DNA of 64,000 bases from an uncultured delta proteobacterium (GCA_963785725.1 CAWAWS010000033.1:32001-96000), one strand, 5' to 3'. Positions 6,601 through 33,344 are shown, counted from the first letter of the stretch. Translations and numbers: made by a program. Notes: generated from the letters alone by a model not told the origin.

Positions 6601-8451
6601 CACGTGCGCGGGCGCATGCGGCACGGGCGTCAACGCCACCGGCGTGGGCGCGGTCGTCGTGTACGCGACATCGGAGTGCGTCAGGTCGCGGCGCGCGCCG
6701 TCGGCTTGCACGCGCGCCACCGGCCCGTCGACGCGGGCGCCGCCGCCGGTCGCGTCCTTCGCCTCGGTCGCCGCAGCGGCGCTGGCGCCGCGTGCCGCCG
6801 CATCGTCGGTGCGCCCACCGAGCGACGCCGCGACGACTTCGGCGGTCGCGCCGTCGCCGAGCGCCGCGCGTGCCAGCCGACCGCCACCGTCGTGCGCATC
6901 CTCGGCCGCGCGCACCGTCGCCAACAGCAGCATCGGCGGCGCGTCGGGCGCGCGCGTGACGGCCTCGAGCAGCGCCAGCGAATCGGCGTCCGCCCACTGC
7001 AAATCGTCGACGACCAGGACCAGCGGGCGCGACTGACCGAGCTGCGTCAACAGCTCCCGCAGCGCGCCGAACAGCCGTTGCCGCAGCTGCTGCGGATCGA
7101 CGTCGTGCGACGGACGCGGCGCCTGCGCCATCGCCTCCACGCGCCGCAAGACCGGAAAGACCTCGGCCAACAGGCCCGCGCGCTGCGGCAACAGCGCCGC
7201 CGCTTCGCGCTTGGGCAGCTTCGAGAGCCAGCGCGCCAACGCGTCGACGACGCCATCGACCGCTTTGTACGGCACGCTCTCGCGCTCGTAGCAGCGACCT
7301 TGCAAGACGACGGCTTCGGGCACGGCGGCGCGCAGCCGGCGCACGAAGTGGCGCACGAGCGCGCTCTTGCCGACGCCCGATTCGCCGCACACGTGCAGCG
7401 TCGTCGCCACGCCGGTGCGCACCTGCTCGAAGGCCGCCTCCAGCGCCGCCAGCTCGTCGCGGCGACCGACGAACGGCCGTTCGCGCGCGCGATCGCGCAG
7501 GTCGGGCGTGGCGCCCACGTTGCCGCGCGACAGCCGATCGTACAGCTCGCGCGCGCCATGGCGTTGCCGCGGATCCTTGCGCAACAGGCCCGCGCACAGC
7601 GCGTCGAGATCGGCCGGCACTTCGGGCGCCAGCGAGCGCGGCGGCGGCGGCTCGTGCGCCTGTTTTTGCAGCAGCACCTCGAGCGGCGCGCCCGAAAACG
7701 GCACGCCGCCCGTCAACGCTTCGTAGAGGATGACGCCGACCGAATACCAGTCGGCCTCGGGACCGACCTTGCGCGCCGAGGCTTGCTCGGGCGCCATGTA
7801 ATCGGCGGTGCCGACGACGCGAATGTCGCTCTGATCGGGTCGCGCCGCCGACGTGGCCAGACCAAAGTCGAGCAGCACGGCGCGCCCGCTCGGCTCGACG
7901 AGAATGTTGGACGGCTTGATGTCGCGGTGGACGACGCCGGCCGCGTGCAGCGCGGTCACGCCGTGCGCGAGCGACAACAGCGAGGCGCGCAGGCGGGCGA
8001 CGTCGAGCGGAAACGTCGGTCGCAAGAGACGGCCGCTCGGCGGCGGCAAAGTCGCCGCGCGGCGCAGCGGGTCGGCGCTCGGCGTCGGGTCCAGGCGCGG
8101 CTCGGAGACGGCGTGGTCAGACCAATGGTCGCGCGCCGGCCGCACCCAATCGAGCAGATCGACGCCGTCGACGAGCTCCATCGTGAAGAACCACTGCCCC
8201 GCGTCGCAGATGAGCTCGCCGAGCGTGCACAAGTTGGGGTGCGACAGATCTTGGAGCGCGCGAAACTCGTTCTTGAAGCGCAGGATTCCTTCGGCCGACA
8301 ACGTGCGCAGCGTCTTGATGGCGACGCGCGCGCGCCGCTCGCGATCCCAGGCTTCGTAGACGACGCCCATGCCGCCTTCGCCGAGCCGCCGACGCACGTC
8401 GAACCGCCCGGTGCTGCGGAAGTCCGACTCAGCCAAGGGCGCCACGCGCAT
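3679..8451 (-). CDS. Ser/Thr protein kinase fused to AAA/STAND ATPase and helical repeat region, with a long Ala-rich insertion
   Basis: Kinase motifs LGEGGMGVVY, HRDIKPSN, DFG, GTADYMAPEQ; Walker A GESGVGKS; Walker B LVVDDLQWAD; GGHPLF. Confidence 0.9.
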   Translation of the reverse strand: MRVAPLAESDFRSTGRFDVRRRLGEGGMGVVYEAWDRERRARVAIKTLRTLSAEGILRFKNEFRALQDLSHPNLCTLGELICDAGQWFFTMELVDGVDLLDWVRPARDHWSDHAVSEPRLDPTPSADPLRRAATLPPPSGRLLRPTFPLDVARLRASLLSLAHGVTALHAAGVVHRDIKPSNILVEPSGRAVLLDFGLATSAARPDQSDIRVVGTADYMAPEQASARKVGPEADWYSVGVILYEALTGGVPFSGAPLEVLLQKQAHEPPPPRSLAPEVPADLDALCAGLLRKDPRQRHGARELYDRLSRGNVGATPDLRDRARERPFVGRRDELAALEAAFEQVRTGVATTLHVCGESGVGKSALVRHFVRRLRAAVPEAVVLQGRCYERESVPYKAVDGVVDALARWLSKLPKREAAALLPQRAGLLAEVFPVLRRVEAMAQAPRPSHDVDPQQLRQRLFGALRELLTQLGQSRPLVLVVDDLQWADADSLALLEAVTRAPDAPPMLLLATVRAAEDAHDGGGRLARAALGDGATAEVVAASLGGRTDDAAARGASAAAATEAKDATGGGARVDGPVARVQADGARRDLTHSDVAYTTTAPTPVALTPVPHAPAHVATVGAVGAEAPAVAGAATSGVPTADAAAATTTAPTSRAPRGLGEPTDAAASAVASSAEARRGEASARLASPAGQASAAAQPAVGRDTSTALVVETASERTSTASAASVARTSSTSAAAGASGSPTSTASRVARAANAAAAANAAAASNSASAANSAVAANSAAAAANAATAANAAAAANSAGATNSASATNATVAQNAVAASEPAAASGAPGAHSHAPTAPRGVPIFPDAAPADAAADARHDLRTPLASSTTQTIFLARLPPDEARQLAAALLAEQGASSSTASTAGAAIADEAGGHPLFIDELVRHAAATGAEREGPLHLDEALRERVRRLPADAQHVLELVSVAGGPLAQHAAARAADLGFEEFAQQAATLRAANLVRSSGPRPSDLIEPYHDRVRAAVQAGRSPAELRRAHERVALGLESTGRADPEALAAHWQGAGDNDKAAGYAAQAAERASKALAFERAAQLYRQTLLLRPPGSPDVHALQVRLGDALARTGRGSEAARAYLAAAGDAAPADALELRRQASEQLLRSGFVDDGLAALQPVLAAVKLSVPATSRGAFAALAWQRAQLAMRGLRFTRRRAAELPPAQLARVDTAWSLAVGLANIDPVRGAGFGALHLRLALQLGEPSRVARAFAFAACIDAMQGDARAARVDALAGDARRLAEELGDAHAEALALASRAILANSQGRWRACLPQLDAVERLLRERCSGVAWELSTTNLMRAVSLARMGELSELAKNVTASLQEAEQRGDRYAATVLRLGEPNIIWLVQDLPDEARGECEDAIGHWSRSGFHAQHVFHAFSMGQIELYSGDGAGAWERAQALWPLVERSFLLELPLLRAGLLELRGRAALAAAASAPAERKKPLLAEARAAAKRMDKETISYAAAAAAALRAAAAHLDGDDATAQTLLARAALAFDEADMAMHAAVARGRRGRLVGGDEGAALVATMDGWMRRQNVSNPDRFARMILPGF

Positions 8452-8527
8452 TCAGTGTAACGCGCGGCGTCGGCGTTGCGAAGAGCCGCCGAAGTAGGAG
8501 CCGCCCCCACTCCGCCGCCGAAACGAT

Positions 8528-8604
8528 TGGTTCGACCACCGTCGGAATTGGTTTAACCATTGCGGCGATTGGTTTAACCATTGCGGCGATTGGTTTAACC
8601 ATTG
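8528..8604. repeat. Tandem array of 4 x 21 bp units, each carrying TGGTTTAACCA (first copy degenerate)
   Basis: Core starts at 8528, 8549, 8570, 8591; unit ttggtttaaccattgcggcga. Confidence 0.95.
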
Positions 8605-8654
8605 CGGGGCGAAGTCGCCCACGAAGCGCCTGCTGCCGCTCGGCAGTGACGGGA

Positions 8655-9443
8655 TCAGCCGCCGCAGAAGAGGACGACCGAGCCGCTGTCGCCGCGCGTC
8701 GACGACCAGCTGGCGTCGGCGCTGCCGTCGAACTTCAGCGTCAGCGTCTCGTGCGAGAGGCCGCCGGTGTGCGTGATGGTGCCGGCGGTCGGGCAGGCGC
8801 TCTTGCAGCGCGCGTAGCCGGCGACGGTCGTCGACCACACGGCGGTGCCAATCGTCGTGGACCAGGCGCCGTCGAGCGTGGCGCATTCGGTGCTGGTGTT
8901 CCAGCTGGCCGTGTAGTCGCCCTTGCGCGTGATGCCGTAGCCGCGCGCGCCGGTGCCGCTACCCTCGCTGGTGACGCTGAGCTGCTTGTTGCCGCCCGAG
9001 ACGCTGTAGACGGCCTGCGAGTCGAAGTCGAGGCTGGCGCCGTTGACGGCGAGCGCGTTGGCGGTGATGGCGGCGTGGATGCCGTCGCTCTGGACGGTGT
9101 AGGTCACGGTGGCGACGCCGCTGACATGCGCGAGGCCCCACGGGCCGCTGCAGTCGGTGAGCGTATAGGTGACGACGTTGCCGGCGGCGGCAGCGACGAC
9201 GCAGCTGGCCGGCTGATACCAGCTCTTGACGCTGGCCGACGCCACCGTCGCCGCGCCGGCGTCCGTGGCTGCGCTCTCGGTGCCGTCGGTGGTGGTGATG
9301 TAGAGCGCGCTCTCGGTCGAGGTCGCGTCGCTGGAGTCGAGGGCGGCGCTGGCGTTACCCACATCGGTGCCGCCGGCGGCGGCGCCGCCGCAGCCGAGCA
9401 AAAGCGTCGTCGAAAGCAGGCCGAGCATGAGGTCGTAGCGCAT
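8655..9443 (-). CDS. Hypothetical lipoprotein (beta-rich, Cys-containing)
   Basis: Signal peptide with lipobox 'MRYDLMLGLLSTTLLLGC'; start at ATG 9443. Confidence 0.75.
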   Translation of the reverse strand: MRYDLMLGLLSTTLLLGCGGAAAGGTDVGNASAALDSSDATSTESALYITTTDGTESAATDAGAATVASASVKSWYQPASCVVAAAAGNVVTYTLTDCSGPWGLAHVSGVATVTYTVQSDGIHAAITANALAVNGASLDFDSQAVYSVSGGNKQLSVTSEGSGTGARGYGITRKGDYTASWNTSTECATLDGAWSTTIGTAVWSTTVAGYARCKSACPTAGTITHTGGLSHETLTLKFDGSADASWSSTRGDSGSVVLFCGG

Positions 9444-9869
9444 CGGGAAGGCTCCTCGTCGATTGGTCGACGACCGCGGTGATTGCAACCCGAGGACCAG
9501 CCGAATCGCCCCGCAGCGTAACCGCTTCCCGCGCGCGCCGAGACGCGCCGACTCAGCGCCGAGAGACGCCCCGGCTCAGTAGGCGCACCTTCGGCGATCG
9601 GCGCCGCGCATTGGTTTGACCATTGGGCGCGACGTCGTGGCGGCACATGTCGAGTCGCCACGTACGCCGACGCGAGGCAGGTCGCCGCAAGACCTGCGGC
9701 GGAGGCACGCGTGCGCCCGGTGGGCGCGCGTGCCGGAGCTCCTGCGCGCCGGCCATCGGTGGAGCGCGCACAGGGGTGAATAGCTTATGGCGGGCTCGGT
9801 CTCGAAGCGCCGACGTTCGCCAACAGCAGCAAACGCAGGAGACGAGTAAGCCTTCGCGCGTCGGCAGAG

Positions 9870-10256
9870 TTGGCCAAACCATTCGGCCGTCGTCGCGCTC
9901 GGTCTCGCGGCTAGATCGTGCAGCAGCAGCGGCAGCAGTTAACCATTCGGCCGTCGTCGTTAGATCATGCAGCAGCAATGGTTAACCATTCGGCCGTCGT
10001 CGTTGGATCATGCAGCAGCCAGCAGCAGTTAAACCCGGCCATCGTGGCTAAATCATGCTGCGGCCAGCAGCAGCTAAGCCATTCGCCGTCGTCGTTAATT
10101 ATGCTGCAGCAATGGTTTAACCATTCGGCCGTCGTCGTTAATCATGCTGCAGCAATGGTTTAACCATTCGGTCGTCGTCGTTCATCATGCTGCAGCAATG
10201 GTTTAACCATTCGGTCGTCGTCGTTCATCATGCTGCAGCAATGGTTTAACCATTCG
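9870..10256. repeat. Tandem array of about 43 bp units containing TGGTTTAACCA, degenerating leftwards
   Basis: Exact cores at 10113, 10156, 10199, 10242 (period 43); unit gcagcaatggtttaaccattcggtcgtcgtcgttcatcatgct; looser copies back to about 9870. Confidence 0.9.
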
Positions 10257-10277
10257 GGGGCTGACATGCTGGTTCTG

Positions 10278-11402
10278 TCAGCGGTATTTGAGGCCGGTGC
10301 CGGTGTTGAAGACGACCACGCGGTCTTCGCTGCCGATTTCGCCGCGCGCGCGCAGCTCGCCGACCGCGGCCCACGCCGCGCCGCCTTCGGGGCAGACGTC
10401 GACGCCGGTCATCGCCGCGAGCTGCGCCGCCGCCGGCTCGATCGCCGCTTCCTCGACGGCGACCGCCGTGCCGCCGGTGTCGCGAATGGCGCTCAAGCAC
10501 AAGAAGCCGCCGATCGGCGACGGCACACGCAAGCCCCAGGCGCGCGTCGTCGCGTTCGGCCACGGCTCGGTGCGCGTGGCGTTGTCGCGCAGCCCGGCGA
10601 CGACGGGCGCGCACCCCGCCGCCTGAACGCTGACGAGCCGCGGCAGCGTCGGCAAAGGCCAGCCGAGCGCGCGCATTTCGTCGAACGCCTTCCACATGCC
10701 GACGAGGCCGGTGCCGCCACCGGTCGGATAGACGATGACGTCGGGAAGCGCGCCGTCGAGCTGCTCGTAGAGCTCGTAGGCCATCGTCTTCTTGCCCTCG
10801 ACGCGATAGGGCTCCTTGAGCGTCGAAAGGTCAAACCAATCGCGCGGGCCGTGCTCACGCAGCCACTTGCCGGCGTCGGCGATGGTGCCGTCGACGAGCC
10901 GCACCTCGGCGCCGTAGTGGCGACACTCGTCGACGAACGCGCGCGGCGTATCGGACGGCATCACCACCAGCACCGGCAACTTCGCCGCCGCGCCGTAGGC
11001 CGCGAGCGCGCCGGCCGCGTTGCCCGCCGACGGCGCCATGAGCGCTTTGGCGCCTAGCGCGCGCGCCATCGACACCGCCGCTGTCATGCCGCGCGCCTTG
11101 AACGATCCCGTCGGATTGCGCGCTTCGTCCTTGATCCACGTGCGCTCGTCGACGGCAACGAGGGGCGTGAAGCCTTCGCCGAGCGTCACTTCACCGGCGA
11201 CGAGCGGCAGCACCTCGCGATAGCGCCACAGCGACGACACGCGCCCACGGAGCTCGGCCGGCTGCAGCCGCACCTTGGACCAATCGTAGTCGACGCGCAG
11301 TGGCATTCCGCAGCGTTCACAAACGGTCTGCAGCTTCTGCAGCGTGTGCGGCGTCTGGCAGGCGAAACAGGTCAAACCAATCAGAGCTGGGTTCAGATGC
11401 AT
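10278..11402 (-). CDS. thrC: Threonine synthase (PLP fold type II)
   Basis: N-terminal CxxC..CxxC, 'SLWRYREVLP', 'KDEARNPTGSFKARG', 'PSAGNAA', 'EPYRVEGKKTMAYE', 'YPTGGGTG', 'FNTGTGLKY'. Confidence 0.88.
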   Translation of the reverse strand: MHLNPALIGLTCFACQTPHTLQKLQTVCERCGMPLRVDYDWSKVRLQPAELRGRVSSLWRYREVLPLVAGEVTLGEGFTPLVAVDERTWIKDEARNPTGSFKARGMTAAVSMARALGAKALMAPSAGNAAGALAAYGAAAKLPVLVVMPSDTPRAFVDECRHYGAEVRLVDGTIADAGKWLREHGPRDWFDLSTLKEPYRVEGKKTMAYELYEQLDGALPDVIVYPTGGGTGLVGMWKAFDEMRALGWPLPTLPRLVSVQAAGCAPVVAGLRDNATRTEPWPNATTRAWGLRVPSPIGGFLCLSAIRDTGGTAVAVEEAAIEPAAAQLAAMTGVDVCPEGGAAWAAVGELRARGEIGSEDRVVVFNTGTGLKYR

Positions 11403-11687
11403 AGGCCACCGTCGAGCGTCAGGGCGCGTCGCTGGCGCGCATCATAGCTGCGGCGGCGTCGGCGATCGGCGCAAACGCCGAGGCCCGAGCGCGCATGCAG
11501 GTGGGCGGACGTGTGACGCTGTCGCGGCCGTGGCAGTCGACGGCGGCGCCGATCGTCACCAACCGTCGTCCGACGCGGCGCGCGATCCTCGTCATTTGCG
11601 TGACTTGGCCGCGATCGACGCGGCGACGGCGAAACCGGCAGACGAACGCTACACCTCGGTTGCATTTCGCAGCGCGGTTGCGTAAAT

Positions 11688-11705
11688 TGAATGAGCGCTC
11701 ATTCA
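11688..11705. promoter_or_regulatory. Perfect 18-bp palindrome TGAATGAGCGCTCATTCA, likely TetR-family fatty-acid-degradation operator
   Basis: Lies just before RBS AGGAGG (11712-11717) of the acyl-CoA dehydrogenase; resembles the Bacillus FadR (YsiA) box TGAATGA-N4-TCATTCA. Confidence 0.7.
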
Positions 11706-11722
11706 GCAACCAGGAGGCCGTC

Positions 11723-13587
<1,865 letters not shown>

Positions 13588-13596
13588 CGGCCATGA

Positions 13597-13640
13597 CGGC
13601 AATGGTTTAACCAATTTTACGATTGGTTGAACCATTGCCG
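13597..13640. terminator. Inverted repeat built from two TGGTTNAACCA copies 21 bp apart, just after the acyl-CoA dehydrogenase stop
   Basis: cggcaatggtt...aaccattgccg; cores at 13603 and 13624; terminator role is inferred and there is no clear U-tract. Confidence 0.4.
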
Positions 13641-14123
13641 TGGCTAGGGCAACACCCGATCCGTTCGCGCAATTCTCCCCCCGCCACTCGCATGTAGCCC
13701 GTCGACGCGGAATCCCGCGCGCGCCGCCGTCGTGCGCACGATTGAAGGCCACTCAGAAGACAATCTCGCGTCGTCGACGGAGCTTCCCGCGCTCCTCGCT
13801 GCTGTGTGGCACCGAGGACGAGGCCTCGGCTCATAGCCAATGGACACTGCTCGCTGCGCTGTGTGGCACCGAGGGACGACCTCGCCTCATAGCCGATGGA
13901 CCCCGAGCGCGTCGCCGGAGAAGCGCCATCGGCTCGAGCTCGGATCGCGTGCGATAGCGGAACGCGAATTGGTTTAGCCAATACTGAATTGGACAAACCG
14001 TCTTCGCGCGGCTACGCGGCGGGACGCATGCGTTTAGTCGTGGAATCGCGGGAGATCGAGGGCCGGCGAATGGTTTAACCAATCCTGGAATTGGTTAAAC
14101 CATTTCGCCGGACCGTCGGAGGT

Positions 14124-15724
14124 TTAGCGGTTGCCGTCGACTTCGGGAGCGGGAGCGGAGGTCTTGCGGTTGCCCGGCTCGGAGGCGGCATCGGACGTCG
14201 GACGCGCGGGCGCGGCCGGAGCCGCGTGCGAGTTGCCGACGTTCGGCGTGGCATTCACCGGCCGACCGACCGTGTCGTCGCCGCGGTGCTGCTGCGGCTG
14301 TCCGCCGCCGTGCTGATTTCCCGGCTGGCCGCCGCCGGCGTGCTGCTGCCCGGCGTGCTGATTTCCCGGCTGGCCGCCGCCACCGTGCTGACCGCTCGGC
14401 TGGTTTCCGGGCTGACCGCCGACATGCTGACCGCCCTGCTGGCCGCCCGCATCCTGACCGCCTTGCTGGCCGGCCGTGTGCTGGCCGCCCGGCTGGCCGG
14501 CCGCGTGCTGACCGCCTTGCTGGCCGGCCGCGTGCTGGCCGCCGACATGCTGGCCGCCAGCGCCCGGCGCGCCTGCCGCGCCCGGCGCGCCCATCTCGCC
14601 CGGACGGCGCCGCCCGCGCCCGCCGCGACGACGCTTCTTCCGCTCGGCATCGGCGCCCGCCGGCCCAGCCGGCCCGCCGGCCGCGCTCGCGCCGCCGCCG
14701 CCCGGCGCCTGCCCCTCGGGACGCGGCCCACGCGGCGCACCGCCCGGACCACGTCCGCCCGGTCCGCCACCGCCAGGTCCGCCACCGGGACCACGTCCAC
14801 CCGGTCCGCCGCCGCCGGGACCGCGTCCGCCCGGTCCGCCGCCGCCCGGTCCGCGTCCGCCCGGCCCGCCGCCGCCAGGTCCACGTCCGCCGCCCGGTCC
14901 GCCCGGTCCACGACGCTCGCCGCCCGGTCCGCCCGCGCGCTCGCCGCCCGGCCCGCCTGCGCCGCCCGGTCCGCCCGCGTGCTGCCCGCCCGGCCCGCGT
15001 CCGCGGCCGCCGCGATCATTCCAATCGCCGCCGCCCGGCGCGCCGCGCCCCGGCCGCTTCGGCCCGCGCTTCTTGTCGCCGAACTTGCCGCCGCCGCGCC
15101 CGTCACGCCCCGCGTTCGGATCGCGCGTCAACATCCAGCCCGAGCCCGCCGACGGCGTCGGTCCGCCGCGCTCTTCGCGCTCGTCCTTGGGCGCGCCACC
15201 GTCGCTGCGCGCCGCCTCTTTGACGAGCGAGCCGAGCCCGCGCGGCGCCTTCTGCTTGGGCGCGCCGAAGGGGCTCGGCGCTGCCGCCGTCCACCACCGC
15301 CGCCGCCGCCGCCGCGTCCTTCGCGACCGCCGCCGCCGCCGCGTCCTTCGCGACCGCCGCCACGACCGCCGCGAGCGTCACGCGCGCCGCCGCCGCCCGC
15401 TTCCGGCTGCCAATCGACGACGTAGTTGAACTCGCCGATCTTCGTCGCGCCACGCGGCTCGTGATCGTTGGCGAAGACGCGCACGAGGCGCACCTTGGCC
15501 GCGCGATCGCCGACCGCCTGCAGCGCCTCCAGCAACCGCGCCAGGCGATCGCCGGTGACCGCCAGCGCCTCGCCCAGCCGCTCGCTCATTTGCTCATCGG
15601 TCACGCCTTCGCCTTGCAGCTTGGCGCGCGTCTCCGCCGCTTTCTGCACGGACGTACCGCTGAACTCCGTGACCGTACGGTACGGTCCCTTCTTCTCAGT
15701 TTCGACCTGCTTCTCGTCGCTCAT
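14124..15724 (-). CDS. Hypothetical protein: small folded N-terminal domain plus long RGG/Gly-Pro and Gln-His-Gly disordered tail (frameshift near 15270-15290)
   Basis: ORFs 15128..15724 and 14124..15134 join through 'SPFGAPKQKAPRGLGSL...GSGWMLTRDP'; ATGA overlap with the upstream S1 gene. Confidence 0.7.
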
Positions 15725-16933
15725 TTCGTCTTCTTCCCGCCTTTGAGCAAATCTGCGAACGTTCCCAAGCTCGACGGCGCCTTTGGCGCATCATTGGTTG
15801 AACCATTGTTGTCATCGCCGGCTTCGATCAGGCCCAGCGACAAACGGCGCTTGTCTTTGTCGACCGCGAGTACCACGACCTCGAGCTGCGCGCCTACCTG
15901 TGTTGCTTCGCGCGCGTGGCGGATCTGCTTGCCGCTTGGCCAGCTCGCTGACGTGCAAGCAGGCCCTCGACGCCGGGCGCCAGCTCGACGAACGCGCCGA
16001 AGGTCTCGAGGCGCACGACCTTGCCGCTGCGCGCGCGCGCCCTCGTAGAACTTCGTCGCCGCGTCGGCCCACGGATCGCTGGCCAGCGACTTCAGCGACA
16101 GCGAAATACGCTCGCCGCGCTTGGGATCGTCGCCCTTCTCCATCTTCAAGATCTGAACTTCGATCTCTTGCCCGACGCTGAGCACGTCTTTCGGATGCGC
16201 CGACGCGGCTGAAAGCCGAGCTCGCTCACGTGCAGCATGCCCTCGACGCCGCCGAGGTCGACGAACGCGCCGTAGTCCTTGATCGTCGTGACTTTGCCGC
16301 GCACGACCGCGCCGGGCTCGAGCGTCTTGCGCGTCTCGACGGCGAGCGTCGCCTGCTCCTCGCTCGAGCAGCGCGCGGCGCGACACGACCATGTTGAGGC
16401 GATTGCCGTTGAGCTCGTAGCGCGTGATGCGGAAGCGCAGCTTCTGGCCGACGTAGCCGACGCGTCCTCGACGTGGCGCACGTCGAGCTGCGAGATCGGG
16501 CAGAACGCGCGCACGCCGGCGACGGTGACTTCGACGCCGCCTTTGTTGACGCCGCTGACGGTGCCTTCGACGGGGACGCCGAGCTGGAACGCCTGCTCGA
16601 GCTCGGCCTTGCCCTCGGCGCCGCGGCCGAGCAGCCGCTTGAGCACGATCGAGCCCGACGGGCCGCCGACCTCGACCACGCGCGCCTCCAGCTCGTCCAT
16701 TGGTTGAACCAATAGCTTGCCGTCAGCGTCGCGCAGCTCGGTCAGATCGATCACGCCGTCGGACTTGGCGCCGATATCGATGAAGGCGGCGCTGCGACCA
16801 ATGCTGATCACTTTGCCACGCACGTGTCGCCGACCTGCGGCTCCTTGCGCTTCTTCTTCGAACGACCGTCATCCGGACCTTCGAATTCGGCCAGTAGTGT
16901 TGCGAAATCTTCTTCGTCGTGTTCGGGCGGCAT
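15721..16933 (-). CDS. S1 RNA-binding domain protein (ribosomal protein S1-like, about 4 S1 repeats), several frameshifts
   Basis: 'MPPEHDEEDFATLLAEFE', 'VRGKVISIG..AFIDIGAKSDG', 'VEGTVSGVNKGG..RAFCPISQLD', 'VRGKVTTIKDYGAFVDLGGVEGMLHVSE', C-terminal 'SLGTFADLLK'. Confidence 0.85.
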
Positions 16934-16980
16934 GGGCGGGCTAGTCTACATCGAAAGAACCGCCGTGCTATATCAGGCAA

Positions 16981-17259
16981 ATGCCGCCCAAGACTACATG
17001 TCCCATCAGCCGACCCGACTTTTTATCGAAGGCCGAGCCGCTCAAGATCGATCTCGGTAACGGTCAGGTCCTCATCGCCGAGCCGCGCCAGTTCTCCACC
17101 GGCAGCTTCGGCTGGTACGTCAACTCCAAGGCCAACATCTCCGTCGACGGCAAGCCGCTCTCGGTGCAGGTCGGTATGAACCTCATCGTCGTCGGCAGCA
17201 AGGAAGCCAAGGGCGGAGAGACGGCCGAGGCCAAGCCCGACGACAGCAGCAATGGTTGA
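16981..17259 (+). CDS. Small conserved hypothetical protein (FSTGSFGW motif)
   Basis: 92 aa with GC3-rich codons and beta-strand pattern 'EPRQFSTGSFGWYVNSK..VQVGMNLIVVGSKE'; divergent from the S1 gene. Confidence 0.75.
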   Translation: MPPKTTCPISRPDFLSKAEPLKIDLGNGQVLIAEPRQFSTGSFGWYVNSKANISVDGKPLSVQVGMNLIVVGSKEAKGGETAEAKPDDSSNG

Positions 17260-17448
17260 ACCATTGGCGACGGCAGCGGCCCGCGCCGCGCGTCGCTAGC
17301 CGTCACCGGTCGGAACTCAGGTGAACCCGGGTGCGCCTGGGCGCGTCTGCCAGCATTGGCGGCGACGGCCCAGGCGCAATCGTGTGCGGAGTCGTGGGTG
17401 GGTCGGAAATTGGTTTAACCATTCCGAGAAATGGTTAAACCAATTTGC

Positions 17449-21323: not shown

Positions 21324-21409
21324 GCAGCCAACCTCGCATGATTCGACCGCGCCGCAACAGCATTTCTTGTCGCGCGAGTCGTGACAGGACTCGGTCGTTC
21401 GTAAGGAGC

Positions 21410-21720: not shown

Positions 21721-21834
21721 TTCGTCCGGAAGTCGGCGGAGAATGGCGCGCCATTTCCGCCAAGCGTTCGTGCGCTCGACGATTGGCGTTCACTGGAATT
21801 GTTCGCGCGCCACTTCGATGGTTCGTGCGGCGAG

Positions 21835-22629: not shown

Positions 22630-22669
22630 CGAGTCCAGAAGGTACCAGATCGTGATAGCTTTCGGCACC

Positions 22670-25600: not shown

Positions 25601-26795
25601 AAGCTGCAGGCGGTATCGGAGCAGCTGGCGGAGTCGGAGGCGCGGCTGAAGTCGGAGGCGGCGCGCGCGCAGGAGCTGGCGGCGCAGGCGAACGCGGGGC
25701 AGGAGCGCGTGCAGACGTTGGAGCTGCAGCTGAAGACGGCCGAGCAGCAGGCGGCGGACGCGACGACGCAGGCGGCGGACGCGGCGGAGCGGACGAACAA
25801 GCTGGCGGCCGCCGCGGGGACGAGCGGCGAGCAGGCGCGCGCCGTCGAGCAGCAGCTGGAGGCGGCGACGGCGCAGCTGCGGACGGCCGAGGCGCGCGCG
25901 GGCGAGCTCGAGCGCCAGCTGCACGCGGCGCAGGAAGAGACGCGCGCGGCGGCGACATTGGCGACGGAGCGCGAGCGAGAGGTCGCGGCGGCGACGGCGG
26001 CGGCGCGCGCGGCCGGGGCGCAGTCGGCAGACGCGACGGCGCTCGTCGAGCGGTTGGCGGCGGCGGATGCCGAGCTGCACGCGGCGCAGGCGCGGATCGT
26101 CGAGCGCGAGCAGCGGCTGAGCGATTCTCGAGCGGCAAGCAAAGGCGGCGGACGAGCGGGCGTTGGATGCCGAGGGGCGTGCGCACGAGATCTCGGCGCG
26201 GCTGGATGTGGCCGAGAAGCTGGCGAAGGACGCGACGGCACACGTCGAGGTCGAGGCGCGGCGGGCCGACGACGAGCGGGCGATGCGGCGGGCGGCGGAA
26301 GAGGAGCGCGAGCTGCTGCACGATCGCGCGGCGGGGCTGGAGCGCGAATTGGCGGCGGCGACGGCGGCGCACGGCGCCGGCGGGCAATCATCGGCGGCCG
26401 GCGGCCAATCGGCGATCGGCGGATCGGCGGCGGCGGGCCAAGCGGCAGCCAGCGGCCAGTCGGCAGCCAGCGGCCAATCGGCAGCAGGCGCTGGCGGGCA
26501 TGCGCACGGCGCGGGCGCGAACGGCGACCGTGCGGTCCACGGCGGGCCGGGGGCGCACGCGGCGGGTGCGCCGAGCGTCCCGCCCGGCACCATCGATACA
26601 GTCAGCGCCGTCACCGATGCGCTCGCCGAGCTGCGTGCCAGCCTGCGCGCCGCCAGCGACGAGACGGCAGCGATGACGGAGCCCACGACGTCGGTCCAGG
26701 TCGTCTCCGAGGCGCTCAGCCAGGCGACCGAACAGCTCGAGAACGCGCGCGCGCATCTGCGGGCCCTGTCGCAAATCGTCGGCAGCGACCCGTAG
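22670..26795 (+). CDS. FHA-domain protein with a very long coiled coil (frameshift near 26130)
   Basis: FHA motifs '[26 protein letters not shown]'; more than 1000 aa of heptad A/E/L/Q/R sequence; C-terminus in ORF 26163..26795. Confidence 0.85.
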
Positions 26796-26990
26796 CCGTC
26801 GCGGCGAGCCAGCGCGCCCGCCGTAACAGCTCGAGACGCGCGCATCTGCGGGCCTATCGCAAATCGTCGGCAGCGACCCGTAGCCGTCGCGGCGAGCCAG
26901 CGCGCCCGCCGCAACGGCTCGAGACGCGCGCGCATCTGTCGCAAATCGTCGGCAGCGACCTGTAGTCGCGGCGAGCCAGCGCGCCCGCCG
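26733..26990 (+). repeat. Three tandem copies (about 75-95 bp) of the FHA gene 3' end, including its stop codon
   Basis: gctcgag..cgcgcgcatctg..tcgcaaatcgtcggcagcgacc(c/t)gtag..gtcgcggcgagccagcgcgcccgccg repeated three times. Confidence 0.9.
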
Positions 26991-27047
26991 TTCGTCGCAC
27001 TCGACGGCGCCGGCGCAATGGTTAAACCATTTTCACGATTGGTTTAA

Positions 27048-27320
27048 CCATTGTTTGCGCCGCCACGTCCCCGACCGCGTCATGTTTGCGACATCGCGCT
27101 CGCGCGACGAAGCCATCGTTTGCCAACGTCGGACGCTGCCCACCGAGCCATGTCGCGAGCGTCGGCGCCGCGAGACTACGCCACTGTTTGCGGACGCCGG
27201 CGCTCCGAAACCGAGCGATAGCGCCCCCATATTGCCGCTCCGAAACCGGGCCATTGTTTGCGACATCGTGCTCCGATACCGATCCATTGTTTGCGAGCGT
27301 CGGCGCTCCGAGACAAGGTT
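27048..27320. repeat. Degenerate tandem array of about 33-35 bp units
   Basis: ccattgtttgcga...ctccga(a/t)acc units near 27048, 27080, 27113, 27148, 27181, 27251, 27284. Confidence 0.7.
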
Positions 27321-27676
27321 CGCGATAAACCTTCCGTAACTTTGCCGGTTCAGCCGATGTCCGGCGCGAAGGAGCCGCGGCGCGCGCGGGCACAGCCCGC
27401 CCGCGCGCCGCGGCCAAGCAGCCCGAGCCACTCCGCGGCCGACCAGCCGACCCGTCGCGTCCACACTCCCCGCCGACCAGTCGACACGTCGCTTCCGCAC
27501 TCCCCGCCAACCAGTCGACACGTCGCTTCACGCGCGGCGGATCGATCAGCCGACCAGCCGAGCCGCGGCTTCCGCACTCCGCACCCGACTGAGCCTAGCC
27601 GTGGATTCCACACGCCGCACCGAGCGGCCCAGCCGCGGCCTCCGCACTCCGCACCCGCGCGTATCCGCGCTGCGCG

Positions 27677-29731
27677 CTATGATCGGCGCCGCAGCGACAG
27701 CGGATTGACGTCTTGCGTCGCGATCCCCAGCTCGCGCAGCAGACGATCGAGCTGTTGCCGCGCGACGGGATGGTAGCCGTCGCGAAAGCGTCGCCACCAG
27801 CCGCCGACACGAGCGCGCGTCGCCGGATTGCGCGCCAAGGCCAAATACAGCGGCCGCAAGAACTTGACGCGACCGCCGCCGCGCTCGCCGGCGCCGTCGA
27901 GCGCAGACTCGACGACGTCGAGTGCCGGCGCGTAGTCGCTCTCGATCGCCAACGGCAACCACGCGGCGCGCACCTCGGCGTTGTCGGTCGCGGTAAGGTT
28001 GAACCATTGATCGAGCGTCGCGCACAACGACGATGGACGCGGCAAACCGTCGAGGTACCAGCGCCATTGCCACGGGTCCCAGGTCGCCGCATCGTCGCGC
28101 GCCGGCAACCTGTCGAGCGCTGACGCCGAGCGGGACGCGCCCAGATCCGTCGTATCGCCCGCCGGAGCCGCGGTATCTGACGATTCCGCTCGCGACGACG
28201 ACGCGCCAACGCTCGCTTCGGTCGATGCAGCCGCACTCGCGTCGGTCGACGCGGTTGCGCGCCCGCCGCCCGACGCAACTGCAGCCCGGTCGCTCGATGC
28301 GTCAATTTGGTCGCCCGATGCGGTCGCACTTCGGTCGCTCGACGTGTCCGCAATTCGGTCGCTCGACGCGGCTGCGGCTCCATCCATTGCCGTCGCAGCA
28401 ACCGCGCTCATCAGTGCGCCGGCCACGCCGGACCCCGTCGCGGACGTGGCGCTGGCCGGCAGTCCCGATTGGTTCAACCATTCGTCGACCCGGAATTCTG
28501 GCGCGGCCGCCGCGACGAAGGCCGCTAGCTCCTCCGACGTGATGACGCGACCGGCGAGATCGACGATCCAAGCGCGTAGCCAACGATCGAAGCGGTCGCG
28601 GCCGAGGTGCTCCTCGAGCGCGCACAAAAAGAGGTAACCCTTTTCATAAGGGACGATCGAGAGCGCATCGTCGGGATCGAGACCTTCGAGGTGCGTCCGC
28701 AGCCGCGTCAGCTCCGGCCGCGCGCCGAACGCGACCAGCGCACGATCGAGCTCGCGACGACCGATCGCCGCTTGCAGTCGTGCCGCCGCTGCGCCCGCGA
28801 GCTGCTCGGCCAACCGACGCTCCGCATACACGGCGAAACCTTCGTTGATCCACAGATGCTCGGCCGACGCCGCGCCGACGAGGTTGCCGAACCAGGCGTG
28901 GCAGAGCTCGTGCGCAACGACGCCGAGCAGCGCGCCATCACGCGTCAGCAGCGACGGCGAGAGGAACGTCAGCTGTGGATTCTCCATGCCGCCGTAGGGA
29001 AACGAGGGCGGCGCGATCCACAGGTCGAAGCGCGGCCAGCGATAGGGACCGAGCAAGGCTTCGGCCGCGTGCAGCGTGCGGCCGATGACGGCGAGCACGC
29101 GCGCCGCCTCGTCGATCCGCGCCGGCGCCGCCCAGACGCGCATGCGCGGCGTCAGGTCGCGCGCGACGAAATCGCCGACCGCCAGCGCCAACAGATAGGG
29201 CGCGATTGGTTCAACCATTTCGTACGTCGTTGTTGCGTCGTCGGCGCTCTCGACGCGCGCGACGAACGCGCCGGCCAGGAGCGTCGTCAGCGCGCGCGGC
29301 ACCGTGACCTCGGCGCGCATCGTCAGCCGGGCCGACGGCGAGTCCGGCAGCGGCACGAGCGTACGCGCCTGAATCGGCTGGCACTGGCTGTAGACCAATT
29401 GGTTTAACCATTGCAGCGCGGTCGCAGTGGGCGAGGTGCGATAGACGATGCGCACCGTATGCGCCCGCCCGCGCTCGACGCGCAATCGGCGGCCCAGGAA
29501 CGGATGCGGCGGACTCAGCTCGAACGGCAGCGCCGCGCCCTCGCCGTCGTCGATGCTGACGATATCGAGCTCGCGCGTGTCTAGGTCGACGAAGTCGCCG
29601 GCGCCGTCGACGCGAAGGCAGGCTTCGGCGGCGAGGGTGCGGCTGGCGAAATCGACGCGCACGCGCCAGTCGAGGTGGCGGACGCGCGGCTGCGCGTCGT
29701 CGAACACGGAGTGCGGATCGGGACGCGGCAC
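27677..29731 (-). CDS. M1 family leukotriene-A4-hydrolase-like aminopeptidase with a Ser/Ala-rich insertion
   Basis: 'RPDPHS', 'SQCQPIQAR', 'PPSFPYGGMENP', HELCH..WFGNLV..WINEG, 'VPYEKG', 'GRVKFLRPLY', 'YHPVAR'. Confidence 0.88.
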   Translation of the reverse strand: MPRPDPHSVFDDAQPRVRHLDWRVRVDFASRTLAAEACLRVDGAGDFVDLDTRELDIVSIDDGEGAALPFELSPPHPFLGRRLRVERGRAHTVRIVYRTSPTATALQWLNQLVYSQCQPIQARTLVPLPDSPSARLTMRAEVTVPRALTTLLAGAFVARVESADDATTTYEMVEPIAPYLLALAVGDFVARDLTPRMRVWAAPARIDEAARVLAVIGRTLHAAEALLGPYRWPRFDLWIAPPSFPYGGMENPQLTFLSPSLLTRDGALLGVVAHELCHAWFGNLVGAASAEHLWINEGFAVYAERRLAEQLAGAAAARLQAAIGRRELDRALVAFGARPELTRLRTHLEGLDPDDALSIVPYEKGYLFLCALEEHLGRDRFDRWLRAWIVDLAGRVITSEELAAFVAAAAPEFRVDEWLNQSGLPASATSATGSGVAGALMSAVAATAMDGAAAASSDRIADTSSDRSATASGDQIDASSDRAAVASGGGRATASTDASAAASTEASVGASSSRAESSDTAAPAGDTTDLGASRSASALDRLPARDDAATWDPWQWRWYLDGLPRPSSLCATLDQWFNLTATDNAEVRAAWLPLAIESDYAPALDVVESALDGAGERGGGRVKFLRPLYLALARNPATRARVGGWWRRFRDGYHPVARQQLDRLLRELGIATQDVNPLSLRRRS

Positions 29732-30137
29732 GCCGGCAGTGTAGCGCGCCGCGACCACGCCTGTCGCATCGCCGCGCAGCCGCGATCGTCTTCGAGTGCG
29801 TATGCCGCATCGTCGCGCATTGGCGACCGCTCTCGACCGCGGGCGCCGCATCGTCGCGCGCCGGCGATTCCGCGTGCCAGATGGACGAAACCCGCGTGAT
29901 CAGCTGCATCGAGCAATGGTTAAACCAATCGAGGGAATGGTTTAACCATTGCTCGGCGGGCGGTCGAAAAAGATGCTGACAGCGACGAATCGTCGATCGC
30001 GCGCCGCGATCTGCGACGGCCCATCGATCGCCGGTCACAGCGGGCCGGCCCTGCGGCCGCGCCACCGCCGACCGTGCTGCCGCTACCGATTGCCTGCCGG
30101 ACGAGCAGCGTCTTCCGTTACGCTTATATGTCCTGCG

Positions 30138-31268
30138 ATGGCAACGCGTCGTCAGCACATCTTGCTCGTCCCCGGCTTCTTCGGCTTCGCCAACCTCGGC
30201 GATTTCGCCTATTTCGCGCACGTCCGCGATTTCCTCGTCACGTTCATGCGCCAACGCGACCTCGAGGGCGAAGTGCGCGTCGTGCAGACGTATCCGACCG
30301 CGTCGCTGGCTCGCCGCGCGACGCGCGTCGCCGAGACGGTGGCCGAGCTGCTCGACGACGACGACGGCGACGTTCACCTCATTGGCCACTCGTCGGGCGG
30401 CCTCGACGTGCGCCTCTTCACCGCGCCCAACGTCTCTCTGCCCACGACGCTCGACGTCGACAAATATGCCTGTCGCGTCAAAACCGTCGTCTCGCTCTCG
30501 TCGCCGCACCGCGGCTCGCCGCTGGCGACGTTCCTGTCGAGCGTCCTCGGCGCGCAGCTCTTGCGCGTCATCTCGCTGGTCACGATTTACACGCTGCGCG
30601 GCGGGCGCGTGCCGATCGCCGCCGTGTTTCATCTCGTGCGCCTGTTGTCGCTACCGCGGCTGCCGATGATCGATTCCGGCACGCTGCTCAACAATATCTA
30701 TCGCGATCTCCTGTCCGACTTCTCCCACGATCGCCGCGAAGCGCTCGAGCAGTTCATGATCACCGTCGGCGAGGATCAGGAGCTGCTCGGACAGCTGACA
30801 CCGACGGGGATGGAGACGTTCAACCAATCGACGTTCGATCGTCCCGGCGTGCGTTATGGCTCGGTCGTGACGTGCGCGCGACGGCCGGGCGCGCTGACGG
30901 CGTGGGCGGTCGGCGCGTCACCGCTGCGCCAGACGACGCATTTATTGTTCAACGCGTTTCATCGTCTTACGGCCAATATGTCGTCGATTCCCGTTGGTTT
31001 GACCTATGCGCAGTCGACGGCGTTGACGCGCGCCTACGGCCGACTCCTGGCACCGCGCGACAACGACGGCATGGTCCCGACGCTGTCGCAGGTCTGGGGC
31101 GAAATCATCCACGCGACGTGGGGCGATCACCTCGATGCCATCGGCCACTTCTACTTGCCGTCGCATGTTCCGCCGCACTTCGACTGGCTCAACAGCGGCA
31201 CGCGCTTCTCGATGAGCGACTTCGAGCACATCTGGCGCGACGTCGGCGAATTCTTGGTCGCGAAGTAG
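30138..31268 (+). CDS. Lipase/esterase (alpha/beta hydrolase)
   Basis: 'LLVPGFFGF', nucleophile 'HLIGHSSGGLD', 'SSPHRGSPLA', 'DNDGMVP', 'DHLDAIGHF'. Confidence 0.85.
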   Translation: MATRRQHILLVPGFFGFANLGDFAYFAHVRDFLVTFMRQRDLEGEVRVVQTYPTASLARRATRVAETVAELLDDDDGDVHLIGHSSGGLDVRLFTAPNVSLPTTLDVDKYACRVKTVVSLSSPHRGSPLATFLSSVLGAQLLRVISLVTIYTLRGGRVPIAAVFHLVRLLSLPRLPMIDSGTLLNNIYRDLLSDFSHDRREALEQFMITVGEDQELLGQLTPTGMETFNQSTFDRPGVRYGSVVTCARRPGALTAWAVGASPLRQTTHLLFNAFHRLTANMSSIPVGLTYAQSTALTRAYGRLLAPRDNDGMVPTLSQVWGEIIHATWGDHLDAIGHFYLPSHVPPHFDWLNSGTRFSMSDFEHIWRDVGEFLVAK

Positions 31269-31359
31269 CGGGCCAATTGGTTAAACCAATGCGTGCACGC
31301 CAATGCGCGCGAGCCGCGACCGCGGCCACGCAGCTGCACGCCGCGTCGTAATCAGCCGA

Positions 31360-31660
31360 AACGGCCTAACCAATCGCGGGCGTCGTTGAGCCAGTCGCGC
31401 GTGTGGTCAAACCAATCGCTTGCGTCGCAAAACCAGTAGCAGCCTCGTACCAAGCGCGTGTCGTCGTAACCAGTCGCGTGCGTGGTCAACCGGTCGCGTG
31501 CGTGGTCAAACCGGTCGCGTGCGTGGTCAAACCGGTCGCGTGCGTGGTCAAACCGGTCGCGTGGGCGATTAAACCAATCGCGTGCGTGGTCAAACCGGTC
31601 GCGTGCGTGGTCAAACCGGTCGCGTGCGCGGTTAAACCAATCGCGTGCGTCGTAACCAGC
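31360..31660. repeat. Tandem array of 21 bp units carrying variants of the motif (TGGTCAAACCG/A)
   Basis: Unit cgcgtgcgtggtcaaaccggt; cores at 31503, 31524, 31545, 31566, 31587, 31608, 31629. Confidence 0.92.
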
Positions 31661-31716
31661 CGCGTGGATGTCATCCAGCCGTGTGGATGTCATCCAGCCG
31701 CGTGGATGTCATCCCG
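31659..31716. repeat. 3 x 19 bp tandem repeat with internal palindrome TGGATGTCATCC(A)
   Basis: GGATGTCATCC at 31666, 31685, 31704. Confidence 0.9.
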
Positions 31717-31796
31717 CCGCGCTAATGGTTAAACCAATTCAACGAATGGTTAAACCAATCCTCGCGGCGAGTGCCCGGCGACGATCGGTTGCGGAA

Positions 31797-33344
31797 TCAG
31801 TCGCGGGCGGTGCGGTTCCAGCGTTGCCGACGACGCACGAGCGCGACGAGCGCCGACTTGATCGTCGGTAGCGCGTACAGCGGCGCGGCCAGCACGACAC
31901 GCAGCGGCACTCGGTCATGCGCAAATCGCCACCACGCGGCGACGATCGCCAGCGCGCACGTCGTCATGCCGGCCAAGGCGTACGCAAACGGACGCCAGTC
32001 GTGAATGGTCAAACCAATCGCGAATGCCGCCGTGGCCGCGAGGAGCCAGAGTGGAAACAGCAGGGACAGCGGCGGCACGGCGAGCTCGAGCGCCAGCATG
32101 AAGAGCCCGAAGCTGCCGTGACGAACCGCGGCCACGACGAGACGCGGCGACTGCAGCATCGTGCGCAAGTGGCCCCACAGCCAACGCGTGCGCTGCGCGT
32201 CGGCGGCGCGCTCACGCGACGGGAAGAGGCTCGTCACGCGCGCGTCGGCGCAAAAGCGCGGCGGCGTGCCGGCGGCGGCGAGATCGATGGCGAGCTGCAC
32301 GTCCTCGACGACGCTGGCGTTGCCAAACGGCGCGACGCGAGCGAGCGTCCACGGCAGCGCCATGCCGGCGCCGGTCAGTAGACAAGGCGCGCCGAGTCGC
32401 ATGAGGCCGAGCGGTCGCGCCCAATTGCGGACGGCGAAGAGCAGCTCGGCCAGCTGGCGCGCGGGCGGCGCGTCGGCCGGTGCGCGCATGAGGTAGACGG
32501 CCTGCGCAGGCGCGGCGCCGCCGGCGTCGCGCAGCCGAGCGATCGAGCCGGGCGCCACGTCGCAGTCGGCGTCGACGATGATGACGACATCGGGCGGCCG
32601 CGCGGCGAGCGCGGCGATGCCGGCGGCGAGCGCCCATCCTTTGCCGGCGCGTGCCGCATCGTGGCGTTCGACGACTTCGGCGCCGGCGGCGCGCGCGATG
32701 GCGGCGGTGTCGTCGCTGCAGTTGTCGGCGACCACGAGCAGCCGATCGCCGCGGCGCAGCTGTGGCGTCAGCGTGGCCAGCGTCGCGGCGATGCCGGCGG
32801 CTTCGTCGTGCGCGGGCACGATAATGGCGACGCGAGCTGGGCCGCCGCCATCACGCGGCACGCCGGCGGGATCGCGCGCGTCGCCTGATTGGCCATCGTC
32901 CGTCGCGCGTTGCGCATCACTCGTACCCGCCGCGCTCTGCGCATCACTCGTACCCGCCGCGCGTCGTGTGTCACTCGCGCCCGCCGCGCGTCGCGCGTCA
33001 TTCGCGCCCGCCGCGCGTCGCGCGTCATTCGCGTCCGCCGCGCGTCGTGTGTCACTCGCGCCCGCCGCGCGTCGCGCGTCATTCGCGTCCGCCGCGCTTT
33101 TCGCATCGCTCACGCGCGCCGCGCTTTGCGCATCACTGGCGCTCACCGCGGCTTGCGCATCACTGGCGCCTTCCGCATCACTCGCGCCGACATCCGCCGC
33201 TCGCGCATCCGCCGACCCGGCGGCCGGCCATTGTCCGCCGCCGCCCCGCCGCTGCCCGACCGTCAACGCCGCGGCAATCTCCAGCACGAATACCGCGCTC
33301 GGAAGCGCGAGCAGAGCGATAGCCACGGAGACGAGCAGCGTCAC
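31797..33344 (-). CDS. Glycosyltransferase family 2 (membrane) with an internal 9-aa repeat insertion
   Basis: 'IIVPAHDEA', 'VVADNCSDDT', 'GKGWAL', DxD 'IVDADC', 'VEDVQL', 'QRTRW', C-terminal TM helices. Confidence 0.88.
   Translation of the reverse strand: MTLLVSVAIALLALPSAVFVLEIAAALTVGQRRGGGGQWPAAGSADARAADVGASDAEGASDAQAAVSASDAQSAARVSDAKSAADANDARRAAGASDTRRAADANDARRAAGANDARRAAGASDTRRAAGTSDAQSAAGTSDAQRATDDGQSGDARDPAGVPRDGGGPARVAIIVPAHDEAAGIAATLATLTPQLRRGDRLLVVADNCSDDTAAIARAAGAEVVERHDAARAGKGWALAAGIAALAARPPDVVIIVDADCDVAPGSIARLRDAGGAAPAQAVYLMRAPADAPPARQLAELLFAVRNWARPLGLMRLGAPCLLTGAGMALPWTLARVAPFGNASVVEDVQLAIDLAAAGTPPRFCADARVTSLFPSRERAADAQRTRWLWGHLRTMLQSPRLVVAAVRHGSFGLFMLALELAVPPLSLLFPLWLLAATAAFAIGLTIHDWRPFAYALAGMTTCALAIVAAWWRFAHDRVPLRVVLAAPLYALPTIKSALVALVRRRQRWNRTARD

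Follow-up and report, generated by a model that had tools for sequence, protein, structure and literature searches.

Bacterial repressors are thought to act at few promoter sites, and fields of sites defined by chromosome position are known for dedicated chromosome proteins. The accessible part of a survey of the GntR/FadR regulators gives 2396 sites for 634 regulators, about four each, situated near the regulated genes (PMC4494728). GalR, a metabolic repressor whose sites lie beside unrelated genes, was proposed to connect remote sites and to give the chromosome its shape (accessible portion of PMC5110547). The 64,000-nucleotide stretch analysed here (the window; GCA_963785725.1 CAWAWS010000033.1:32001-96000, referred to as G000:C33:32001-96000) originates from an uncultured delta proteobacterium known from metagenome assemblies only, whose assembly, G000, comprises 8.89 Mb in 47 contigs. 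It contains a field of one AT-rich palindrome, TGGTTNAACCA, over about 24 kb, which an earlier note had read as the loading zone of a dimeric protein acting in segregation or macrodomain organisation. Judged by sequence, a FadR-type GntR repressor of this soil myxobacterium, P0001, very probably uses the 15-bp palindrome as its operator, and copies of the palindrome may have spread in cis from single operators to fill whole domains.

The exact core TGGTTNAACCA occurs 32 times in the window, between 8549 and 31757 and at precisely the 32 positions counted by hand in the earlier note, compared with a mean of 0.00 and a maximum of 0 in 100 dinucleotide shuffles. Allowing one mismatch gave 47 matches (chance mean 0.19), 45 of them in 8528-32016 and only two beyond, at 52051 and 53537. 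A matrix built on 137 genomic cores confirmed an extended 15-bp consensus, AWTGGTTNAACCAWT. The 137 exact cores of the genome are distributed over four contigs (78 on C7, 32 on C33, 26 on C39 and 1 on C20), and the 15-mer with at most one mismatch, which defines a site hereafter, was found 151 times. All but one of these sites (150, comprising 112 perfect and 38 one-mismatch copies) fall into four sharply bounded domains that occupy 0.9% of the genome at a density of about 1.8 per kb, with typical distances of 450-660 bp between sites: domain A with 60 sites in 32.9 kb, domain B with 25 in 13.6 kb, domain C, the field in the window (8526..32018), with 37 in 23.5 kb and sharp edges, and domain D with 28 in 11.3 kb. 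Weaker versions of AWTGGTTNAACCAWT are found 24 times inside and 10 times outside the domains with two mismatches, 23 and 100 times with three, and 31 and 952 times with four. In a screen that took in every gapped 5+5 palindrome present in 12 or more separate copies, the five top-ranking entries were this motif. The proposed clustering by region irrespective of gene function therefore stands, with four domains of mixed gene content, whereas the single domain implied in the note does not, as the genome scan revealed three more. The only site outside the domains, a perfect copy at G000:C20:273117 directly upstream of the aconitase gene, has no surrounding field and is absent from the site lists of the relatives; it is possibly the fresh seed of a domain.

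The scan of the genome and its relatives further showed neither the even genome-wide spread of uptake sequences or HIP1, as 150 of 151 sites are confined to the four domains, nor the common flanks and hairpins past the core that mark repetitive extragenic palindromic (REP) and other mobile repeats. The same motif is present in the orthologous blocks of seven other genomes of the family and in metagenome contigs, and thus is not an assembly artefact; in 400 further genomes of the phylum, at most six matches of a relaxed pattern were obtained in each, versus 123 in G000. Short-read contigs of close strains from three studies cover parts of 8000-22000 of the window, and in a partial check none of the 40 listed differences (of 1014) to these contigs hits the in-gene site at 15793.

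The gene of the putative binder P0001 (G000:C7:367773-368570) is located in domain A, beyond the window, and encodes 265 residues with GntR and FCD domains according to Pfam. Its start codon lies inside one motif copy, yielding the N-terminus MVKPI, and a second copy is placed 21 bp upstream in the divergent gap. A fold search with the predicted model (predicted local distance difference test, pLDDT, 89) gave E. coli and Vibrio FadR as the closest folds, with E. coli FadR ranking first; the protein scores below every named equivalog cut-off. P0001 has Arg28, Asn39 and Gly59 (numbering of PMC4494728), which are conserved in an 87-row alignment and which the accessible part of that source ties to G/C in the TKGT box and to A/T at the central positions. 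The motif follows the operator rules given there: it has TKGT and ACMA boxes, A/T-rich flanks and a 3-nt stretch separating GT from AC. Hence the GntR/FadR operator shape recognised in the earlier note is borne out by the 137-core matrix, and its dimeric, sequence-specific binder gains support; the binder was called unidentified, but a FadR-type GntR gene with a paired site on its own start codon now stands as the candidate.

This arrangement recurs among related proteins: in 94 of 121 family members the motif encodes a peptide within the first 40 residues, in most cases an initial MVKP, and many of the remaining 27 are N-terminally cut. Homologues with 74-77% identity were found in four metagenome assemblies labelled Polyangia, Myxococcales or delta proteobacterium. 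Among 15 genomes of the family, eight have a P0001 ortholog, eight have at least seven sites (151, 60, 41, 29, 27, 26, 11 and 7 in total) and seven have both. An R/K-rich C-terminal tail, a feature of 53 of the 6501 G000 proteins, is present in nearly all full-length orthologs. Three other GntR-like genes were found in G000, none with a site at its start, and no partner gene for P0001 was found. A HicB-like orphan in the middle of domain A (L006:1046-1945; G000:C7:373276-374157) is a lead only; it is conserved, has a long Gly/Asn-rich tail, gave no Pfam hit in its first 175 residues and reached an Atlas score of 0.90 to HicB clusters.

The closely spaced pair extends further than the family. 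A scan for the 21-bp pair returned at least 127 metagenome stretches and one viral stretch; of the 128 pair loci listed, 30 match genes of domain A or B (several overlapping on one contig) and eight are near a distant FadR homolog. These eight, from other bacteria, are L202:4435-5285, L163, L210, L225, L235, L238, L145 and L150, and in L202, the one checked, the pair is situated 49 bp upstream of the distant FadR-type gene. The operon behind the L202 pair encodes glycine/proline-oxidase-like subunits, and on its other side the pair faces a pyrroline-5-carboxylate-reductase-like gene, the names being given by sequence likeness. Many low-G+C metagenome loci carry the pair with no match to G000 proteins, as does the single viral locus, which is also low in G+C.

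Within G000, 32 of 150 successive spacings equal 21 bp and three equal 43 bp, and 37 pairs carry varied 6-bp spacers. In genome G012, 18 of the 20 short spacings measure 20 bp, as against 21 bp in the five other genomes examined; together with the varied spacers, this points to a dimer-dimer contact that would co-evolve with the sites. The left and right flanks of a site pair no more than by chance and perfection ends at the core, and flank sharing between sites 300-3000 bp apart does not exceed background (0.7% versus 0.6%), indicating protein recognition and independent origins of the sites. A hairpin or cruciform function was rejected since the flanks lack extra left-right pairing, no RNA was listed as a holder of the motif, and copying from neighbouring sites is unsupported beyond 300 bp by the flank comparison.

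Regarding placement, the few promoter-proximal sites expected for the FadR class are replaced by 151 sites, of which 52 lie in convergent gaps without promoters and 49 inside genes. In G000, sites are present in 14 of 15 gaps between convergent genes, in 14 of 27 between co-directional genes and in 5 of 14 between divergent genes (Fisher p 0.0017). The gene content, assessed on 59 proteins with the A and B genes scanned via the copies of relatives, includes coenzyme A (CoA)-linked functions (tryptophan dioxygenase, kynureninase, CoA ligase, enoyl-CoA hydratases, acyl-CoA dehydrogenases and a ketosynthase/acyl carrier protein/LolA cluster) as well as folA, thyA, peptidases, a kinase, RluD, a transglycosylase and glycosyltransferases. 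Motif-encoded peptides in the domain proteins are of the types MVKP, WFNH and IGLTN. An ordinary regulon, in which each site represses or roadblocks its adjacent gene and the targets are clustered by happenstance, would agree with the known operator class, with one predicted enterobacterial FadR site that has the same 11-bp core (accessible part of the PMC4494728 supplement), with the CoA-linked genes in A, B and C, with the many sites touching start codons and with the relatives that lack promoter avoidance. It is nevertheless highly improbable, as it would have to accommodate the 52 sites in promoterless convergent gaps, targets ranging from folA and the kinase to RluD, the transglycosylase and glycosyltransferases, and the scarcity of the motif in the 400 other genomes of the phylum.

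Comparison with relatives shows fields of differing size. The counts per domain refer to orthologous blocks, and their sums equal the whole-genome counts for G001, G002, G004 and G010. Against 60, 25, 37 and 28 sites in domains A, B, C and D of G000, there are 19, 14, 8 and 0 in G002, 19, 1, 5 and 0 in G003, 21, 1, 7 and 0 in G004, 26, 26, 0 and 0 in G012, and 3, 4, 0 and 0 in G010; G001 has 21, 1 and 5 in A, B and C, with the D block not covered. Among the genomes compared, domain C is therefore restricted to the G000 genus and domain D to G000, where its 28 sites contrast with none in the orthologs of five out of five relatives. Domain blocks are 1.10-1.32 times as long as in G002, compared with 0.82-0.94 times for the flanks, and tandem repeats in A-C reach the 98-99th percentile. 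Third-position G+C is lower in the domains (about the 8th percentile), below that of the orthologs and outside the sites themselves; the drop is modest, partly common to controls, and also seen in G002's own domain B. Two places outside A-D carry sites in other lineages, a 20-bp pair at L185:387-417 beside orthologs of G000:C29:99-100k and two sites in a pilus-type locus of G012 (L021:9014 and 13099), and these are possibly further nascent domains.

Of the 151 sites, 49 could be aligned; among 42 aligned within the genus, 22 are common to a relative and 20 are specific to G000. In-gene sites are gapless and often alter several residues. A mid-gene site in a lytic transglycosylase is kept in G000 and all six aligned relatives with A/T-ending codons, persisting in G010, which has seven sites in all; it is located 10 kb from the regulator's pair, an indirect hint that distant operators might be joined. 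At the coding position C7:378025, a site was gained in the separate lineages of G000 and G012. In domain D, the B12-binding/radical SAM gene L080:11250-13031 (G000:C39:311249-313030) contains an in-frame insertion of ~160 residues, made of motif-encoded ELVKPI/MVEPI repeats, that relatives lack.

Auxiliary operators of LacI, DeoR and lambda CI are the looping-type comparators for the reading favoured here, in which belief and doubt are about balanced: a cooperative field of auxiliary operators that would spread in cis and build a looped nucleoprotein domain. Two dimers may bind side by side on one helix face at a 21-bp pair. The ancestral role would have been autorepression and control of nearby CoA-linked operons (tryptophan/anthranilate-CoA breakdown and the fatty-acyl/ketosynthase cluster), with the repressor probably released by an acyl- or aryl-CoA, as the fold likeness to acyl-CoA-sensing FadR suggests. 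Bound dimers might contact one another across kilobases through looping or bridging, aided by the basic C-terminal tail, and each new site that an occupied one can reach would contribute binding energy wherever it is placed, so that selection would add sites in cis at the least costly spots, namely convergent gaps, stop and start codons and tolerant protein stretches. A single operator could in this way expand to a nucleoprotein domain of 11-33 kb with a high local repressor concentration and switch-like binding and release, and new domains would begin when another gene gains a site, as may have happened for C in the genus, for D in G000 and at the lone aconitase site. A bolder version, possible but held only tentatively, is a metabolite-switchable, sequence-encoded chromatin domain, whose operators would start from one gene, extend in cis over evolutionary time until they cover 10-30 kb, alter protein sequence in doing so and found new domains in single lineages, the domains of both arms joining one focus that would dissolve when the CoA-thioester effector rises.

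Several observations weigh against the cooperative field. Isolated half-sites are enriched just 1.2-2.7-fold and motif k-mers not at all, hence the smooth path required by stepwise selection is not visible, and selection on half-sites across the domains was not seen. Gained in-gene sites differ from their relatives by 8.2 mismatches on average, compared with 6.8-7.0 for near-match seed controls (p 0.012 and 0.0016), although this excess weakens with flank-matched controls (p 0.07, 0.03 and 0.26). Genome G007 has 11 sites and no ortholog of P0001 was found in it (51% complete), and G011 has an ortholog cut by a contig end and 0 sites (86% complete). In relatives, 15 of 34 divergent, 28 of 93 co-directional and 10 of 36 convergent gaps are occupied and 58 sites are in genes (automatic gene calls); promoter avoidance is thus clear in G000 only. 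Most genes of C and D are unrelated to CoA metabolism, no clear core operator was seen for either domain, 150 sites with amino-acid costs seem beyond the needs of tight repression, and the bridging by P0001 is itself an inferred step.

The mismatch excess of the gained sites, together with perfect sites that far exceed partial ones, would also suit a mutational drive, in which the bound repressor stalls replication forks, template switching copies the site nearby in one step, more sites cause more stalling, and the fields are tolerated rather than useful. Block-like gains fit such a drive, for instance at C7:359033, where four relatives differ at 9-11 of the 15 site bases but at 7-11 of 60 flank bases, as do the abundant tandem repeats of A-C, the inflated domain DNA and the rearrangement breakpoints at A and D. 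Such a drive is hard to reconcile with the lack of flank sharing at 300-3000 bp, the lack of left-right perfection past the core, the varied pair spacers and in-gene sites that were long conserved and convergently gained; with the excess itself fading under flank matching, it appears rather unlikely.

Many strong sites off promoters, along with the autoregulatory pair on the P0001 gene, might be expected of a titration sink or a replication-coupled timer, where the sites soak up an autorepressed protein, set a threshold or double at a fixed replication time, and A, B and C would be replicated at similar times in G002. A sink, however, needs no clustering, yet 150 of 151 sites occupy 0.9% of the genome; counts also vary 20-fold among relatives, and D is located elsewhere. 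We regard this explanation as improbable.

The chromosomal position of the domains bears on the segregation role proposed in the earlier note. A centromere replacing or supplementing parS would be consistent with dense palindromes over ~24 kb regardless of genes and with a parA-parB locus displaced from oriC. In G000, dnaA and three canonical parS are on C19, parA-parB on C6 and SMC on C26, with no domain on any of these; parA-parB (G000:C6:332436-334143) is apart from oriC, the three parS (C19:123688-123791) are by rsmG near dnaA, and the inferred contig order of G002 puts parB on a different contig, some 1.8 Mb away from the origin. As dnaA/parS, parA-parB and SMC are all elsewhere and intact, the site fields are no substitute centromere. 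The parS consensus and the location near oriC are likewise absent from the fields, the putative binder has a FadR fold instead of that of ParB, and the single stretch at ter or ori, several hundred kb long, that matS or ram sites would fill is replaced by four domains of 11-33 kb, those of G002 lying ~1 Mb from oriC. The centromere-like or single-macrodomain element is thus not supported, with four domains, none at oriC, in a set that differs between relatives, and we consider a centromere, which position and number already contradict, scarcely credible, although the domains may have a structural role; the canonical parS that the note had proposed to look for elsewhere do exist, on another contig.

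SlmA-SBS, MatP-matS and RacA-ram are systems whose sites are placed by chromosome position, SlmA, like RefZ, being derived from the repurposed TetR-type repressor family. By analogy, a repurposed FadR-type protein might label loci on both arms, ~1 Mb from oriC, and serve there in anchoring, in the pairing of arms or in the control of division. The nine contigs of G002, ordered by contig-end synteny into a 7.88-Mb circle, place A (+0.97-0.99 Mb) and C (+1.05-1.07 Mb) on one side of dnaA/parS and B (about -1.24 Mb) on the other, a roughly mirrored layout suggestive of RefZ, for which five bound motifs with two on each arm set a precedent (accessible part of PMC6657595). In G000, whose contigs C19-C38-C14-C7 were ordered by unique contig-end overlaps, A and B are at similar distances (0.96-0.99 and 1.03-1.04 Mb from oriC); relative to G002 there is an exchange at the edge of A and at a point 30 kb ahead of B. 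The left-arm place of B in G002, however, hangs on one join made by elimination, C was not placed in G000, where its flanks are accessory genes mapping to scattered places in relatives, and D is probably off-position, near 0.4 Mb on the other arm. GC, third-position and octamer skews were too weak to place oriC and ter or to orient contigs, and a search with three patterns turned up no dif-like site that would fix ter. Conservation would be expected of a landmark, so a varying domain set counts against it: B is near-empty in G001, G003 and G004, with one site each, the G010 and G012 blocks of C are devoid of sites, and D is exclusive to G000. Furthermore, neighbour genes hold their distance from oriC equally well, symmetric inversions alone give mirror positions, and P0001 retains its effector domain. 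The landmark is accordingly viewed as unlikely.

Turning to domain C itself, its left edge is a four-site run with a 21-bp period and one degenerate copy (8526..8603) upstream of a Ser/Thr kinase gene, followed by intergenic sites that include a tandem array of four at a 43-bp period (9610..10254). The next gene encodes a pyridoxal phosphate (PLP) enzyme (PALP, threonine-synthase-like; 10278..11402, minus strand) with two degenerate sites within, and then comes an acyl-CoA dehydrogenase gene (11723..13587, plus strand) with a degenerate site at 12471. The convergent gap behind it, which has no promoter, contains two 21-bp pairs (13601/13622 and 14069/14090) and a single site at 13968 (13601..14104). 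The gene of an S1-domain RNA-binding protein (14124..16932, minus strand) carries sites at 15793 and 16699 that are absent from relatives, the latter turning LTVxEG into LLVQPM. Both the dehydrogenase and S1 genes are frameshifted, and because close-strain contigs lack single extra window bases at 12095, 12342, 12393, 12528, 12976, 13214, 13265, 16198, 16207 and 16363, the frameshifts are probably single-base assembly insertions; the G000 assembly probably understates completeness, given such frameshifts. The stop codon of a 92-residue conserved protein (16981-17259) lies within a site, next to a 21-bp pair in a convergent gap (17251..17444); the protein gave no Pfam hit, and the neighbours found for it in Atlas (0.93-0.94) are bacterial and phage hypothetical proteins.

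An M1 aminopeptidase gene (17448..20146, minus strand) has in-gene sites at 18581, 19003 and 19773, and between its start and folA lies a cluster of eight sites (20201..20847), a candidate core operator of domain C since a site upstream of the aminopeptidase gene is retained in G001, G002 and G004. Over folA, thyA and a gene for an FHA-domain protein (20838..26795), the domain has its sole site-free gap, of 6.2 kb; the FHA-domain protein (22670-26795) has an Ala/Glu/Gln-rich coiled coil of great length. The convergent gap that follows holds a 21-bp pair (27017..27052), and after it comes a leukotriene-A4-hydrolase-like M1 peptidase gene (27677..29758, minus strand) with sites at 28468 and 29398, common to G002-G004 (29398 also to G001), and 29205, common to G003. 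Another pair (29915..29950) occupies the divergent gap between this peptidase and a lipase-like gene, and at the right edge (31276..32018) a convergent gap contains sites, decayed tandem copies and a 21-bp pair, while the final site falls within a GT2 gene.

In comparison with known systems, ParB-parS relies on few parS at oriC, from which a protein domain of 10-30 kb arises by spreading; the G000 fields resemble it in palindromic sites and scale but would be domains written in the sequence, off oriC and separate from ParABS. DNA uptake sequences are genome-wide, driven by biased uptake, and accumulate in coding DNA where they bias peptides (accessible part of PMC2817400); the G000 motif likewise biases encoded peptides, but its range is limited to 0.9% of the genome and it is linked to a repressor. 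The RefZ-binding motifs (RBMs) resemble the fields in that a repurposed repressor-family protein has sites set by chromosome position instead of gene function (accessible part of PMC6657595), yet there are five RBMs, positionally conserved across a genus, whereas here the number and set of domains vary among close relatives, the density is far higher and no link to division or segregation was shown. GalR sites are few and scattered, in contrast to the dense, regional sites of G000, which form fixed-spacing pairs, appear to grow in cis and belong to another protein family, with bridging inferred here (accessible portion of PMC5110547).

A literature search covering few of the subscription journals returned no paper dealing with the motif, with a FadR regulon in myxobacteria or with GntR operator fields of domain scale, suggesting that the operator class is known and its domain-filling arrangement is without a description in the literature found. 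A metabolic repressor family appears to be caught here in building fields on the scale of domains: genomes with between 7 and 151 sites form a natural series, and one domain arose in just one lineage. The system could test how auxiliary operators, looping and local concentration drive the gain of sites and how far selection overrides protein sequence, and it bears on how a transcription factor could become a chromosome-organising protein. The closest relatives remain the FadR-subfamily operators (FadR, PdhR, LldR and GlcC), which, in the accessible part of PMC4494728, share the A/T-rich palindrome, the TKGT/ACMA boxes, the 3-nt GT-AC spacing, the FadR fold and an autoregulated gene in a divergon with a double site; G000 differs from them in its 151 sites, one third of which are inside genes and which fill four domains.

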